This document shows, in pieces, positions 2,399-27,022 of a DNA stretch of 41,090 bases. The first letter of the stretch is position 1, and every line of letters begins with the position of its first letter. Both the position numbers and the translations under genes were made by a program. The stretch lies in IMG/VR virus record IMGVR_UViG_2563366960_000010. One strand, written 5' to 3'. Under the pieces are notes generated by a model, which was given only the letters and a program-made list of their open reading frames with translations, made no database searches and was not told the origin of the DNA. The stretch comes from a virus (lineage: Duplodnaviria > Heunggongvirae > Uroviricota > Caudoviricetes).

Positions 2399-2696
2399 GT
2401 TTAGACCTCGATACTTTAAAAATTTGAACGACGTTACCGCGCGTTTTAATAACCGCAGCCAGCATGACAGCGTTGATAATGACCTCAGATAAATCCACAG
2501 CCATTGGCGTACGTAACCAGATTGCATAGGCGACTCGAACAGGAATACTGGCCGCAGCAACAATCAGGAAATAAGCAAGCCATCCTCCCCACCTTCGATG
2601 TTGAGAGCCGTTACGCCGGAATGTGACAACGCGAATTGCTATGCCAGTGCAAATAACTGCATTGGTGATAAGCAAAAAAAACTCATGCGTTACCAT
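2388..2696 (-). CDS. Small two-TM membrane protein in lysis cassette (holin/antiholin-like)
   Basis: 102 aa, two hydrophobic helices, SD GGGGAGAAAAG upstream, overlaps holin end and endolysin start. Confidence 0.5.
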
Positions 2697-3087
2697 CGTC
2701 TTTTCTCCCCGGAATTAACTCGCGTGGATTATCGGAACGGTGATAGAGCCATATACCAATACGCACAGCGACAATTGCTGACACGAATGCGCCTGCAGAG
2801 AAAACAATCCCTTTTTCAAAAGAGTCCTGCGTGATGGTAGGGATCAGGCTGGCTATGCCGATAAGAATTGATGCTGCTGGTTTGTAAAAGAGAAGGCCGC
2901 AAAGAAAGCTGAGCATCGACAGGAGCACCCGGCGACGGATGGGGTACTCTACTGCAGAGGTAACAAAAATTACCGCCCCAGCCAAAGCCCCTAAAGCAAC
3001 CTCCGGAGGGGCACCTGCAATAACCGCAGCAAGAGAACTAAAACTAAGCAACTGATTTAATTGCTCACTTGTTACTTGAGCAGACAT
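2683..3087 (-). CDS. Holin
   Basis: 134 aa with multiple TM segments and charged C-terminus, strong SD AGGAGA, first gene of lysis cassette. Confidence 0.65.
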   Translation of the reverse strand: MSAQVTSEQLNQLLSFSSLAAVIAGAPPEVALGALAGAVIFVTSAVEYPIRRRVLLSMLSFLCGLLFYKPAASILIGIASLIPTITQDSFEKGIVFSAGAFVSAIVAVRIGIWLYHRSDNPRELIPGRKDDGNA

Positions 3088-3368
3088 ACTTTCTCCTGTT
3101 TACTATCTATAAGCCAGTCAATTATTGATGACTAAACCCGCATAGTAAACCATATATGAATCATTATTGTTCCATATCATATATCTCAATAAAAGTACTA
3201 ATGATTTTACAGAACGAGCCAGCAGAGTGGGGGCAGTTGTACAGGAACCATAGACTTAATTTTGTATTTAATAATGCTATGGTGTAATAAACCTGAACAT
3301 GTATTTAAAATACGTACTGATTCATGATAGAATTCAAAGATAACTTTTCACAAACTCCGTTTTTGATA

Positions 3369-3395
3369 CCCGCAAAATATTGCGGGCTTTTTTTT
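3369..3395 (+). terminator. Plus-strand intrinsic terminator abutting the tailspike stop codon
   Basis: Stem CCCGCA / TGCGGG with 6-nt loop followed by T8 on the plus strand; on the minus strand the hairpin is not followed by a U-run. Confidence 0.5.
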
Positions 3396-6300
3396 AACGT
3401 TCTTCCAGAGACTGAATCCGCTCTTTTATCTTATCCATTTCTCTGCGCTGCCATGCTGCCTCGATATAGAATAAGAGATCAGGTCTGACCCCCCATCTAG
3501 ATCCTGCTGGCGTTATTTCAACGCGCTCAATGATGTCTTCCATTACCATCACTGGATTATCATCCTCATCAACAATGATGCTCCCGTCATTATCAGTCAG
3601 CGGCATTTCCCTTTGGCCAGTAATGACGTCATCATATACTGCGGGATAATCGTCATAGCAAAGAAAGGCATAGCGGCATGTTGTGCTTTCTTCTTCCATG
3701 AGTCCGTGAGAAATAAGAACATCACGAAGTTGCTGCGCGATTACACCATGATGTATCCTCGCCCCTTCTTCCCCCTTTATAGCGACAGCGTTCAGCCATT
3801 TATAAGCGATATACCTGACGTCACCCCAGGCATCCAGCAATGCTTCGTCAGGAGAGACCGGCTCTGTCTTTAATGTTCCGTCACTGGTAACCACAGGATT
3901 GGAGCCAAGATAAACTGTCGAGAACCTGTTTCCCGGACCACCAAGAGCATTTACATTATCAAGATAAGGTTTAACATCTCCGTTCTCAAAAAGATGTTCG
4001 AGTGCGTTATATACCGCGCGACGTGGAGTACTGCTTCCGGAACCATGCAACGTTATCATTGCACCATCTGCTGAAGACGTTGTTTCACCGCCGCTAACGA
4101 TTAATCTCTGAGCGGTAACATCATCAGACGGTACTTTCTTCGCAATAATGGCGTAATTACCCTCAAGTTTGACTTCCGCGCGAACTTGTCCTGATGTACC
4201 TGCATGGACAGTCAGTGACTGGACGGCAACATCATCTGTGAAATCAACGGGTACAGGAACCGTCCTCACGCCTGACGTCGACATAAAAGTAGGAAGCGTT
4301 CTGTTAGGAGTGGCTCCGTAGACAAAATCCCTTGAAACAAATTCTTCCTGTTTAATTTTCACCCTGAAACAATACAAATCAGCCGGGTGACCATCGTGAA
4401 CATAAGGATATTTTCTGTTGTTATCCCCTATGCTCCATGGGTTTAGAAAGTCTTCCCCACCGAAAATGTAGTACAGCCAGTTGTCTTTGATACAAACTGA
4501 ACCAACACCAACTGCAGAGTTAACTATTCCGCCCTGATAAATCTGATCAGTAACATTAACCCACTCTACATTATCCAGACTCCACTCATTGACGTTAACT
4601 CTGGTCATAAATGTTCTTGGATAATTTCCTGCATAACGGTTATCAGGTTCTCCTCCTTCCCACTCACCAAATGCGCGCTCACTGCCAAAAATAATCAGCT
4701 CATCGCCAACTTTGGCAAAAGGAAGGTTTGAGTGATGAACATTATTTGGGAAGCGAAGAGAATTCCATGATGTACCTAAATCAGAGCTTCTGTGCAATGA
4801 ACTACCGGGTTGAGTACTTAATGTCCCCCTGGTCGTCAGATACAGAATGCCATCATAATATTTTACACATGGCTCAGATGCATTCGCCTCATATTCTGCA
4901 GGTATGCGTCTGCGAACAAAGCTACCAGGAGAACCGAAAGCATCAGAGAAATAGAGTATCCCAAGCTCGCGTGGACCAATATCACCATTATGGTAGCCAA
5001 CAGCAAAACTGTTATCGCTAATCGTCGCAAAACTGTGAATCTCAGTAACAGGAGTGCTTCCGTCAACAAAAGAAGGAATAGTTCCAAGACTGGTTTTTCT
5101 CCATGGTGACGAGTGAAATGATGTACCAAAACTCCAGTATCTACCCTCGTTATTCTGATCCACATCCTGGGTATTTTGCGTCGTAACTGTAAAAGTATTT
5201 TTATCAATAACAGTAGTCACCGTCATATTCCCGGTAACACCTGTAACACCAGAGTTTGAGAAGTTGACAAAATCACCAGCAAATAATCCGTGATCAGTAA
5301 TGCGAATATAAGCGACTTGCTGATTTGCTGCTTTCGTTATACCACCATAAGCGCGAAGGCTGCGACTCATTGGGCGATCCCACAACTCTGCAACCTGCAG
5401 TTTATTTCCGCTCACGGTCCGCGTCTCAATTACAGCAAAAAGGCGATTTCTGACAACCCCCATACTCATGCAGTGATAGTTAACTGTGGGATAGTTTTCA
5501 TGTAAATCTGTAAGCCATTCCGGCGTTGTCCAGGTCTTCCCGTCATCTCCTGAGCGAACCCATGCAACATGGAGGTTATTTACACCATGGCGGTCTCCAG
5601 CCATAAAAGGCGCATAGATGACATTGTCATATACAAACGTTTTATCCTGCGTCCAGGCGTTGTACCACGGTGTATCTGTAATTTTAAATAACTCTCCCTG
5701 GATAAAATCTTCAGAAGCATAAAAAAGAGGCTGGCCCGGTATTCTCTCAAATAAAAAACGAGCATTTTTAAATCGACTGACATCCGGAAGAGTTGATACT
5801 TTAAAAGTAAGCCCTAATCCGTCAATTTTATAACCTGGAGATGAGGCTTCAAGGCACGCGCTTATTGCAGTGGAATCGTCATTTATACCATCACCAACAG
5901 CTCCAAAATCTTTGGGGCTAATAGCATCACGCATTTTATCCTGGAACGTTCGGTACACAGCCCCAGAACCATACTGAATAAACCAACCAAAACCACCAAC
6001 AACCCCGGCGATTGCAGCATCGACATAATTACGCATTGAGCGATTATTTACAGCGTCCTGCTCAAATGATGGATCTGCAAGGTTAGAAATTTTGTTTTGC
6101 TTTGCATCGTAATATTTTGCAAGCAAAGATGGTTTCATCAATGCACGTCTGAACCACCCAAAACATTGCTGGATCAGCATCGTCAGGTAGTCAAAGGCAT
6201 CTTCATGCACTTCGGGGAAAAATTTTCCCTGATTGCGAAGGTCTGTCTCCTGCACTACATCAAGCACACGATCTATCGTAATTCGCCATCCAGTAGCAAG

Positions 6301-6513
6301 CGGAGACGGAAGAACCACAGAACCGCCACTATAAGTGCCCGCCCCAGTTACCGTATAACCGGTATCCAGAACCAATTCTGTTACGTTTCCGTTCAGGTCA
6401 GACACCTGAACAACCAGGTCTGATTTTCTGAAAATTCGAAAAGTATACGGAAACGATGTCGTAACGCCGTTACCGGTGTATTCGTTGTGGTCAACTTCGG
6501 TTGAGACCGTCAT
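3394..6513 (-). CDS. Tailspike: endosialidase with T7 gp17-like N-terminal adaptor and C-terminal intramolecular chaperone domain
   Basis: 1039 aa. N-terminus resembles T7 tail-fibre adaptor; sialidase-type FERIP motif; two Asp-boxes (SGDDGKTW, SSDLGTSW); C-terminus resembles the self-cleaving chaperone domain of K1F-type endosialidases. Confidence 0.8.
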   Translation of the reverse strand: MTVSTEVDHNEYTGNGVTTSFPYTFRIFRKSDLVVQVSDLNGNVTELVLDTGYTVTGAGTYSGGSVVLPSPLATGWRITIDRVLDVVQETDLRNQGKFFPEVHEDAFDYLTMLIQQCFGWFRRALMKPSLLAKYYDAKQNKISNLADPSFEQDAVNNRSMRNYVDAAIAGVVGGFGWFIQYGSGAVYRTFQDKMRDAISPKDFGAVGDGINDDSTAISACLEASSPGYKIDGLGLTFKVSTLPDVSRFKNARFLFERIPGQPLFYASEDFIQGELFKITDTPWYNAWTQDKTFVYDNVIYAPFMAGDRHGVNNLHVAWVRSGDDGKTWTTPEWLTDLHENYPTVNYHCMSMGVVRNRLFAVIETRTVSGNKLQVAELWDRPMSRSLRAYGGITKAANQQVAYIRITDHGLFAGDFVNFSNSGVTGVTGNMTVTTVIDKNTFTVTTQNTQDVDQNNEGRYWSFGTSFHSSPWRKTSLGTIPSFVDGSTPVTEIHSFATISDNSFAVGYHNGDIGPRELGILYFSDAFGSPGSFVRRRIPAEYEANASEPCVKYYDGILYLTTRGTLSTQPGSSLHRSSDLGTSWNSLRFPNNVHHSNLPFAKVGDELIIFGSERAFGEWEGGEPDNRYAGNYPRTFMTRVNVNEWSLDNVEWVNVTDQIYQGGIVNSAVGVGSVCIKDNWLYYIFGGEDFLNPWSIGDNNRKYPYVHDGHPADLYCFRVKIKQEEFVSRDFVYGATPNRTLPTFMSTSGVRTVPVPVDFTDDVAVQSLTVHAGTSGQVRAEVKLEGNYAIIAKKVPSDDVTAQRLIVSGGETTSSADGAMITLHGSGSSTPRRAVYNALEHLFENGDVKPYLDNVNALGGPGNRFSTVYLGSNPVVTSDGTLKTEPVSPDEALLDAWGDVRYIAYKWLNAVAIKGEEGARIHHGVIAQQLRDVLISHGLMEEESTTCRYAFLCYDDYPAVYDDVITGQREMPLTDNDGSIIVDEDDNPVMVMEDIIERVEITPAGSRWGVRPDLLFYIEAAWQRREMDKIKERIQSLEER

Positions 6514-6669: not shown

Positions 6670-6689
6670 TACTGTATAAATATACAGTT
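6670..6689. promoter_or_regulatory. LexA (SOS) box
   Basis: TACTGTATAAATATACAGTT is a near-perfect match to the CTGT-N8-ACAG consensus, 20 nt upstream of the ATG at 6709. Confidence 0.7.
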
Positions 6690-6708: not shown

Positions 6709-6966
6709 ATGCAGCAGTATCACTATCCACTGGAAGACGGATTTACCGAAAGGATTCACACGCCGGGAGGCGTCAGGTCACTGGTGGAGGGATCGCACTT
6801 GATGAAATTACTCCGGGATCTCGATAAGGATGGATTTAATGTCGATGGCCCACTTGCCGAACTGACTGCACTGATTAACTACGTCACCAGCTCACAGATG
6901 TCTATGCAGGATCTGCAAACACATCTCGACTATTGTGCCGAACAATTACGAAAACAAACCCGGTAA
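6709..6966 (+). CDS. Small protein homologous to the C-terminal domain of the antirepressor at 8115-8825; candidate SOS-controlled antirepressor or modulator
   Basis: 85 aa from ATG 6709 with SD GGAG. By eye about 40% identical to the last ~80 aa of the Ant ORF (shared IH.P.GV, LM.LL, DG..V.G..AEL, QTH). Confidence 0.6.
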   Translation: MQQYHYPLEDGFTERIHTPGGVRSLVEGSHLMKLLRDLDKDGFNVDGPLAELTALINYVTSSQMSMQDLQTHLDYCAEQLRKQTR

Positions 6967-26412: not shown

Positions 26413-26489
26413 GTGGCATTAGCTCAGTTGGACAGAGCAACCGCCTTCTAAGCGGTTGGTCGCAGGTTCGAATCCTGCATGCCACGCCA
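26413..26489 (+). tRNA. tRNA-Arg (anticodon UCU), phage-encoded, argU-like
   Basis: 77-nt cloverleaf folded by hand: acceptor GTGGCAT/ATGCCAC, T-arm GCAGG-TTCGAAT-CCTGC, anticodon loop CTTCTAA, discriminator G, encoded CCA; core resembles E. coli argU but stems differ. Confidence 0.85.
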
Positions 26490-26532
26490 GAATCACGCCT
26501 AAGGACCGTGATGCCAGAAGTTCCAGGTGCTT

Positions 26533-26574
26533 GGCGGTGATGGTTTCCCTTGAAGGACTATCACCGCCCTTTTT
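26533..26574 (+). terminator. Intrinsic terminator downstream of the tRNA
   Basis: 9-bp stem GGCGGTGAT / (A)TCACCGCC followed by CTTTTT. Confidence 0.6.
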
Positions 26575-26652
26575 ACAGCAGGACGCCATTGCGATGACTT
26601 CATGCTGTAAACCAGTACAGCCACGGAAGGCATAACTCATTGCTTCCAGTTC

Positions 26653-26677
26653 GCCCGGTTCGTCCGGGCATTTTTTT
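26653..26677 (+). terminator. Second intrinsic terminator immediately upstream of the 110-aa gene SD
   Basis: Stem GCCCGG / CCGGGC followed by T7; SD AAGGTGA and ATG 26690 follow directly. Confidence 0.6.
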
Positions 26678-26689
26678 AAGGTGAAAATC

Positions 26690-27022
26690 ATGAAAGAGAA
26701 GACTGCAGCTGAGCGCTATGCCGCAGCTATCAATGCCGCGATGGCGATTGTAAACCTGCGTGAAGAGATTAAAGATCTCCTTGCAATTATCCATAACAAC
26801 CTGACATGTACAGAGTTGCTTGGCGGTCAGTACAACGGTGAGGCGGTGAAGGAGGCATTTAAAAATGCCGAGGTAGGAATAATTCCAGCAAACTATGTCA
26901 AGGCTGAATGTGTGCTCCTAAAGGCACGAGTGAGTCTGCATGAAGATCCTGGTAATCTCGGTCGAACTGCAATGCGTTACGTGATAGACGAGTCGAATGC
27001 CAAACACAATCTACCGAAATAA
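26690..27022 (+). CDS. Hypothetical 110-aa helical protein in tRNA island (accessory gene)
   Basis: ORF with SD AAGGTGA, opposite in orientation to the flanking late operon; no family recognised. Confidence 0.5.
   Translation: MKEKTAAERYAAAINAAMAIVNLREEIKDLLAIIHNNLTCTELLGGQYNGEAVKEAFKNAEVGIIPANYVKAECVLLKARVSLHEDPGNLGRTAMRYVIDESNAKHNLPK

Follow-up and report, generated by a model that had tools for sequence, protein, structure and literature searches.

What does the DNA between a phage tailspike gene and the lysis genes beside it do when it appears to carry no gene of its own? We considered this question for a Caudoviricetes sequence of 41,090 nucleotides (nt), IMG/VR record IMGVR_UViG_2563366960_000010, which as a whole is called the window below. 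The window matches Escherichia phage vB_EcoP_ZX5 (hereafter ZX5; genus Uetakevirus, epsilon15/phiV10 group) at 99.8% identity and, on this match, is a Uetakevirus (epsilon15/phiV10-like) prophage of Escherichia coli with a K1 endosialidase tailspike. The gap of about 300 base pairs (bp) that separates the tailspike gene from the Phage_holin_8 gene (holin_8 below) is the variable cargo (moron) slot of the family, occupied in this lineage by an orphan insert that ends in a genuine one-way terminator. Neither the slot nor the insert, which makes up about two-thirds of the gap, was noticed in the original prediction, made from the sequence of this region. The explanation that we favour, and that we regard as about evenly poised between right and wrong, is that the insert forms an autonomous plus-strand mini-unit which would make a short non-coding RNA, and the terminator of which would also shield the late operon. 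Its elements are:

3193..3393, no strand assigned: lineage-specific orphan insert, GC content 0.34, its uniqueness running on to 3422
3304..3333, plus strand: predicted sigma70 promoter with an extended -10 element, TTTAAA/TTAAAA-N18/17-TGaTAGAAT
3340..3395, plus strand: predicted non-coding RNA of about 55 nt, deduced from the promoter and the terminator
3369..3395, plus strand only: intrinsic terminator, with stem 3369-3375/3380-3386, loop 3376-3379, C3387 and T8 at 3388-3395

A cargo slot with an orphan insert

The non-coding gap extends over 306 bp (3088-3393), from the start of holin_8 at 3087 to the stop codon of the tailspike gene (TAA at 3396..3394, minus strand). Its GC content is 0.324, whereas the lysis genes have 0.517, the tailspike gene 0.447 and the window 0.49, and it is the most AT-rich stretch of 306 nt in the 41 kb, as the 0.15% of 306-nt windows with a value as low all overlap it. 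The strongly AT-rich character that had been attributed to the gap is therefore fully borne out, and the lowest GC content of the window fits what would be expected of acquired cargo.

The slot between tailspike and holin_8 was surveyed in 6 genomes and 80 IMG/VR contigs encoding a holin_8 protein, about 86 relatives in all, where it falls into some 36 classes of 72-2258 bp that are empty or hold small open reading frames (ORFs) or convergent ORFs of 329-646 amino acids. In phiV10 the slot is occupied by oac (O-antigen acetyltransferase), convergent with the tail fibre gene, in Enterobacter phage Tyrion by a convergent O-antigen acetylase, in TL-2011b by a co-directional acetyltransferase, in EC.W1-9 and phiv142-3 by small co-directional ORFs, and in Citrobacter braakii by a convergent ORF of 59 amino acids, membrane-like, that is followed by a hairpin beside the tailspike stop. 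Several classes (L094, with T9, L095, L086, L052 and L029) have a co-directional terminator just past the tailspike stop. Only the part of the gap from 3098 to about 3192 can be aligned with other Uetakevirus slots, colinearly, and the minimal slots of relatives, in which 72-120 bp separate the tailspike stop from the holin_8 start, consist of this conserved region alone. Because it is the part that remains in the minimal slots, the stretch from 3088 to about 3192 represents the upstream region of the lysis cassette itself.

The rest of the gap is the insert. No homologue of it was found outside the same context in phages, plasmids or E. coli genomes (blastn, distant mode), and neither blastn-short nor nhmmer detected any similarity to the slots of relatives. 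Of 5426 complete E. coli genomes, 72 contain it, always in the same context and in many cases in a K1 strain, and it also occurs in 3 phage records, 15 IMG/VR contigs and 8 metagenome contigs (the last two sets by exact-pattern scans), with the same neighbours throughout. The copies share an identity of at least 96-98%, and the lineage is too young (identity of at least 96%) for conservation or covariation either to support or to refute a function.

The unique stretch also takes in the last 9 tailspike codons, up to a breakpoint with phage CUS-3 at 3423, from which position onward the tailspike gene is 99% identical to CUS-3 siaK1. This DNA identity ends 27 nt short of the tailspike stop (window 3397-3423), and the last residues of the tailspike are still similar at the protein level (QRREMDKIKERIQSLEER vs QRREIERIKARLDLIEGKH); we read the breakpoint, from this comparison, as a recombination joint within the 3' end of the tailspike gene.

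The absence of a plausible ORF, also put forward in the original prediction, was confirmed. ORFs of at least 20 amino acids are few in the gap, and the only one of more than 30 amino acids lying wholly within it is the following:

3156..3287, plus strand: ORF of 43 amino acids, judged non-coding, without a Shine-Dalgarno sequence (SD), its ATG overlapping a conserved motif

This ORF, which lies on the same strand as the terminator, has no homologue outside copies that are 98-100% identical, among them one metagenome-derived record of a "hypothetical protein", and it is missing from the annotations of ZX5 and of the five E. coli RefSeq records that were inspected, IAI39 included; in one copy of the family its start is mutated from ATG to ATA. 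All ORFs of at least 20 amino acids were rejected, and none resembles a hydrophobic type I toxin. Searches of the gap for transfer RNA and transfer-messenger RNA genes found none, the repeats consist of a single weak inverted repeat of 12 nt (3247-3283) with no U-run on either side, and the gap as a whole folds no better than shuffled sequences on either strand (z = -0.6 and -1.6).

A one-way terminator and a promoter-like site before it

The terminator consists of the hairpin CCCGCAA-AATA-TTGCGGG at 3369-3386 (-10 to -11 kcal/mol) followed on the plus strand by C and T8. Its stem of 7 bp with 5 GC pairs and its loop of 4 nt lie within the range of intrinsic terminators (stem of at least 5 bp, loop of 3-8 nt), and the U-run that characterises them is found directly 3' of the stem on the plus strand, whereas on the minus strand the hairpin is followed by UAUCAAAAAC and thus by no U-run. 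The last two residues of the T8 (T3394-T3395) belong to the tailspike stop codon. No other terminator-like match occurs between 2400 and 4200. Under strict criteria (a stem of 7 Watson-Crick pairs, 5 or more of them GC, and at least 7 T in 8) only four sites in the 41 kb qualify as strong terminators; the three others each lie at a gene end, and such a terminator appeared in only 5e-5 of trials with random sequence of the composition of the gap (Markov model). The plus-strand-only terminator is therefore genuine and not a product of chance, and the hairpin with T8 would end transcription on that strand only, just as first described.

Comparison with the equivalent region of related phages, which had been proposed as a check, covered both the lineage and the other slots. 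Within the lineage, 46 of the 47 copies preserve the stem, with a T-run of 7-9, and the variant A3368G even extends it by one base pair; the other slots cannot be aligned beyond 3098 to about 3192, and a convergent terminator at the tailspike stop was met in the survey only in the K1 class and in C. braakii. In 10 of the 47 copies (L023, L030-L032, L037 and others) the hairpin is exactly reverse-complemented, the loop at 3376-3379 changing from AATA to TATT with unchanged flanks, and this inversion would be most simply explained by a single template-switch event.

The origin of a transcript that could end at this hairpin is limited by a second terminator to the left:

1108-1140, both strands: strong bidirectional terminator AAAAAACCCTCTGTAGTAACAGAGGGTTTTGTT, between the convergent DUF5384 gene (plus) and Rz/DUF2514 gene (minus)

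This element closes the lysis cassette as well as the plus-strand genes upstream. Because the plus-strand genes to the left of the lysis cassette are blocked there, the transcription unit must start nearer to the hairpin, which agrees with the plus-strand promoter within the gap that had been postulated. A single candidate is present: the site at 3304-3333 is the only plus-strand sigma70-like site in the gap and combines a -35 hexamer TTTAAA (3304) or TTAAAA (3305), the dinucleotide TG at 3325-3326 and the -10 hexamer TAGAAT at 3328-3333. It lies 35 bp before the hairpin, with a predicted start near A3340. Among 47 promoter-like matches in the window, only 4 (3 distinct sites) have the TG extension, this one included; in simulations the probability of any such promoter site in the gap was 0.039, and 0.017 for a site 20-120 nt before the hairpin. 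Both hexamers are invariant across the 47 copies, which represent 16 haplotypes.

Promoter prediction on both strands, also suggested at the outset, gave in addition weaker minus-strand sites at 3353..3324, 3189..3160 and 3149..3121, of which the first overlaps the plus-strand site:

3353..3324, minus strand: alternative promoter-like site TTGTGA-18-TATCAT, a 9/12 match without TG, its -10 overlapping the plus-strand -10

This site would give the lysis genes a leader of about 230 nt; we consider it weak, such sites being common in AT-rich DNA.

Taken as a cassette, the insert stands between genes that are adjacent in relatives and differs in base composition from its flanks (GC content 0.34 vs 0.45-0.52); it has its own terminator, a consensus match to a promoter, and no credible ORF that could be a protein-coding gene benefiting the lysogen. 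From these features it is moron-like in architecture and not a classical moron.

What the insert may do

According to the reading that we favour, the K1-endosialidase lineage carries an insert of about 200 bp beside about 105 bp of conserved lysis upstream region, and within it the extended -10 promoter would direct transcription toward the tailspike gene. RNA polymerase would reach the terminator after about 55 nt, the U-run ending on the tailspike stop codon, and the prophage would produce the RNA independently of late transcription, while the terminator would keep convergent transcription out of the late operon. The predicted RNA would comprise an unstructured, free 5' part (AUAACUUUUCACAAACUCCG), a U-rich stretch (GUUUUUGAUA), the GC hairpin and U8, its fold (z = -2.65) being driven by the hairpin. 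This is the 3' module typical of small RNAs (sRNAs) that bind Hfq: a terminator with at least seven U (here U8) preceded by a U-rich single-stranded stretch (here GUUUUUGAUA). A rule of seven or more T for the terminators of Hfq-binding sRNAs is reported in PMC5558911, and sRNAs with terminators of this kind are frequent in E. coli prophages (PMC4104026; bioRxiv 10.64898/2026.05.13.724894). We infer promoter activity, the ends of the RNA, Hfq binding and a regulatory role in trans or in cis from these sequence features.

Several observations weigh against this reading. AT-rich DNA is in general enriched in promoter-like hexamers (10 were found between 2400 and 4200 vs 3.8 expected), and a promoter beside a terminator would also be expected as the remains of a deleted cargo gene. 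Single-nucleotide polymorphisms are as dense in the gap (about 33/kb) as in the lysis genes, the region of the predicted RNA is not less variable, and a common A/C polymorphism at 3352 falls in the middle of the putative seed. A search of Rfam at a permissive threshold gave no family above the gathering threshold, the best sub-threshold matches (Arrc14 with 21 bits, threshold 99, and GcvB with 14, threshold 42) aligning with the terminator only. The hairpin sequence was absent from full-text literature searches, and the ZX5 paper is silent on the gap region. Finally, no target among 46 phage translation start regions performed better than shuffled seeds.

A target in the host was sought in the kps/neu capsule cluster, chosen because relatives keep receptor-modifying genes in the slot and the phage uses the K1 capsule, and taken from two K1 hosts, IAI39 and the extraintestinal pathogenic E. 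coli (ExPEC) strain XM. The segment UCACAAACUC (3349-3358), single-stranded in the predicted RNA, is a perfect 10-nt complement of positions -9..+1 of kpsD in both hosts (L124 2435-2444 and L127 4552-4561). A match of 10 nt somewhere in 14 start regions was reached by 4.9% of shuffled seeds, and among 242 background start regions 0.8% attained the same duplex energy. IAI39 itself carries the common C allele at 3352, which interrupts the pairing, and its kpsD site is unchanged. This statistically marginal match (P about 0.05-0.1) is a lead and not a finding, with a low probability of being functional: that the slot was refilled with a small RNA that tunes the receptor by repressing kpsD, the gene of the outer-membrane polysialic-acid export protein, seems to us highly improbable. 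If it were true, the reduced export of capsule would shield lysogens from superinfection and would amount to an RNA-based lysogenic conversion.

The most serious competitor of the small RNA, possible in our view and held only tentatively, is that the insert makes no functional RNA and is a relic or an insulator. The terminator would then be left from a lost convergent cargo gene, such as the genes ending beside the tailspike stop in the slots of relatives, or would have arrived with the 3' flank of a donor endosialidase gene, as the CUS-3 DNA breakpoint at 3423 within the 3' end of the tailspike gene could mean that the flank derives from another endosialidase allele. At most it would block stray antisense transcription into the late operon, and the promoter-like site would be a by-product of AT-richness, in keeping with the abundance of such hexamers in this type of DNA and with an orphan insert free of any sign of constraint. 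However, no remnant of an ORF or of an SD is detectable between promoter and terminator, a TG-extended -10 at 35 bp from the hairpin is unlikely by chance (0.017-0.04), and the stem with a T-run of at least 7 is kept in 46/47 copies, though the lineage is young.

The original prediction had considered a short transcript antisense to the leader of the lysis genes, and this idea can be maintained in part. Lambda OOP, a short RNA, is transcribed constitutively toward a phage operon and stops at an intrinsic terminator of its own, close to where the opposing gene ends; it overlaps about 50 nt of the cII coding sequence and acts through RNase III. The predicted plus-strand RNA would have a similar layout and could pair in cis with late transcripts that read through, or the polymerases could collide, so that the lysis genes would be uncoupled or damped relative to the late operon. 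From the tailspike stop to the start of holin_8 the minus strand has no terminator, which makes read-through likely; the predicted RNA would be fully complementary to 3340-3395 of a read-through transcript, and the co-directional terminators of the five slot classes named above indicate that the coupling of tailspike and lysis genes varies in the family. By contrast with OOP, the overlap with the tailspike ORF is limited to 2 nt of the stop codon, the remainder lying in the 3' flank, so that pairing would matter for read-through transcripts only. The overlap also excludes the lysis ribosome-binding site, and relatives with slots of 72 bp manage without the insert. For the RNA to be antisense to a lysis leader, late transcripts would have to run on past the tailspike gene, or a far-upstream minus-strand promoter would have to be used; the conserved lysis upstream region (3088 to about 3192) lies outside 3340-3395. 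We judge such a cis-acting antisense regulator unlikely.

Less likely still is a role on the minus strand, in which the hairpin would act on the tailspike mRNA as a 3' stabiliser or processing site, with the AT-rich DNA as a late lysis promoter or as curved DNA. The three minus-strand promoter-like sites and the presence of the conserved lysis upstream region in the gap speak for it, but the one-sided T8 is the signature of a plus-strand terminator, the conserved, promoter-bearing part is 3088-3192 and not the insert, and relatives lack the insert altogether; curvature in particular, one of the structural roles first envisaged, finds no support, as the AA/TT periodicity of 10-11 bp in the gap is not above that of shuffled sequences. 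That the hairpin terminates a gene for a small protein, the 43-amino-acid ORF, can practically be dismissed, for in spite of its strand and its one database record this ORF has no SD, no independent homologue and no plus-strand promoter-like site upstream, and its start codon, which one copy lacks, falls within a conserved DNA motif.

The surroundings of the gap and its relation to known systems

The genes on either side and the conserved part of the gap contain the following features:

2683..3087, minus strand: Phage_holin_8 membrane protein gene (Pfam), 134 amino acids, first of the lysis cassette
3088..3192, minus strand: conserved upstream/leader region of the lysis cassette, from colinear alignment with other Uetakevirus slots
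3097..3093, minus strand: SD of holin_8, AGGAG
3149..3121, minus strand: weak sigma70-like site TTTACT-17-AATAAT
3147..3159, no strand assigned: motif AAACCATATATG, invariant or nearly so in the alignments of relatives (A1, A2)
3394..6513, minus strand: K1 endosialidase tailspike, 1039 amino acids, with the Pfam domains End_beta_propel, End_tail_spike, End_N_terminal and Peptidase_S74 chaperone

The labels "tailspike" and "holin" given to the flanking genes from the start were correct, as there are Pfam domains on both sides. Leftward of holin_8, the minus strand encodes in order a Phage_holin_3_7 holin, a GH19 endolysin and a DUF2514/Rz protein. In one copy (L031, E. coli 23CRST038, locus 499-905), an IS3 element cuts the endosialidase gene about 200 bp from its 3' end; the gap and the lysis genes are kept there and the prophage is decaying.

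The motif AAACCATATATG corresponds to half of the palindrome AACCATATATGGTT of phiV10, Tyrion and Citrobacter prophages and probably serves the lysis cassette as a regulatory or promoter element. Sites resembling AACCAnATATGGTT number 7 in the window vs 1.6 expected (3148, 6578, 7790, 26024, 34701 and two weaker ones), and several are 40-50 bp from a copy of another palindrome, ATTACC-N5-GGTAAT, a spacing that suggests a shared promoter architecture including the conserved motif of the gap. ATTACC-N5-GGTAAT itself occurs at 12 sites (6617, 7737, 7830, 8897, 26075, 29180, 29198, 32755, 32817, 35104, 35816 and 35878; 17 bp with up to 1 mismatch) vs 0.2 expected, mostly in intergenic promoter regions, and is probably an operator of the phage repressor or of another global regulator. 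In phiV10, Tyrion and C. braakii the convergent cargo gene is preceded by a copy of the form ATTACC-N5-GGTGAT, which has been lost from the K1 gap.

Close to the lysis genes, relatives (L002, L007, L024-L029 and others) keep a strong SD (AAGGGGG/AAGGAGG) and an ATG about 25-45 nt upstream of the holin_8 start. This ATG opens a tiny upstream ORF (MHSKRW-stop in phiV10) whose end meets or overlaps the start codon of holin_8, an arrangement that suggests that the two are translationally coupled in these relatives. The window has ATA instead of this ATG (3088-3125), and the direct AGGAG SD in its place.

Two further elements lie outside this region. A tRNA-Arg gene (anticodon TCT) at 26413-26489 on the plus strand overlaps the start of a mechanically called minus-strand ORF (26419-26691). 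A near-perfect LexA box, TACTGTATAAATATACAGTT, at 6670-6689 is located just upstream of a plus-strand ORF (6709-6966) that in ZX5 precedes the ash and anti-repressor genes; by analogy with the Tum protein of phage 186, it suggests an SOS-controlled induction of the anti-repressor.

Among known systems, the insert is closest in layout to phage morons and in particular to phiV10 oac, with which it shares the position between tailspike and holin_8, the orientation convergent with the tailspike gene, a GC content below that of the flanks, the logic of an autonomous promoter (here predicted) and terminator, and the absence from close relatives in which the flanking genes are adjacent. Unlike oac, it has neither protein-coding cargo nor the ATTACC-N5-GGTGAT operator, and it shows no sequence similarity to oac or to the other cassettes. 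The neuO locus of CUS-3 is likewise accessory low-GC DNA right downstream of a K1 endosialidase gene, 99% identical to this one, in a temperate K1 phage, but neuO, a contingency gene, encodes a protein, runs in the same direction as the tailspike gene of its P22-like phage and has no sequence similarity to the insert. The Hfq-dependent prophage sRNAs of E. coli (DicF, AgvB/AsxR and the Pas sRNAs; PMC4104026, PMC5558911 and bioRxiv 10.64898/2026.05.13.724894) are short, have their own promoter (in our case a predicted one) and begin with a single-stranded 5' part, followed by a U-rich stretch and by a GC hairpin with at least 7 U; they are encoded in accessory prophage DNA. The RNA considered here is a predicted one, has no sequence or Rfam relationship with them, and would belong to a podovirus of the genus Uetakevirus, not to a lambdoid phage.

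The feature thus appears ordinary in kind for prophages, a candidate sRNA gene of known build. Its carrier, a clinically relevant K1 prophage, resides in about 1.3% of the complete genomes of E. coli, among them those of O1:K1, O2:K1 and O7:K1 strains (avian pathogenic E. coli, APEC, and CE10) and of isolates from blood and cerebrospinal fluid. Even if the insert is only a relic, the analysis remains useful for annotation, since it defines for the genus a hypervariable cargo slot of 72-2258 bp and a conserved upstream element of the lysis cassette. Should the RNA prove real, epsilon15/phiV10-like podoviruses would have their first described sRNA candidate, and, located where relatives keep genes for lysogenic conversion, it could affect the capsule, phage immunity or the timing of lysis.

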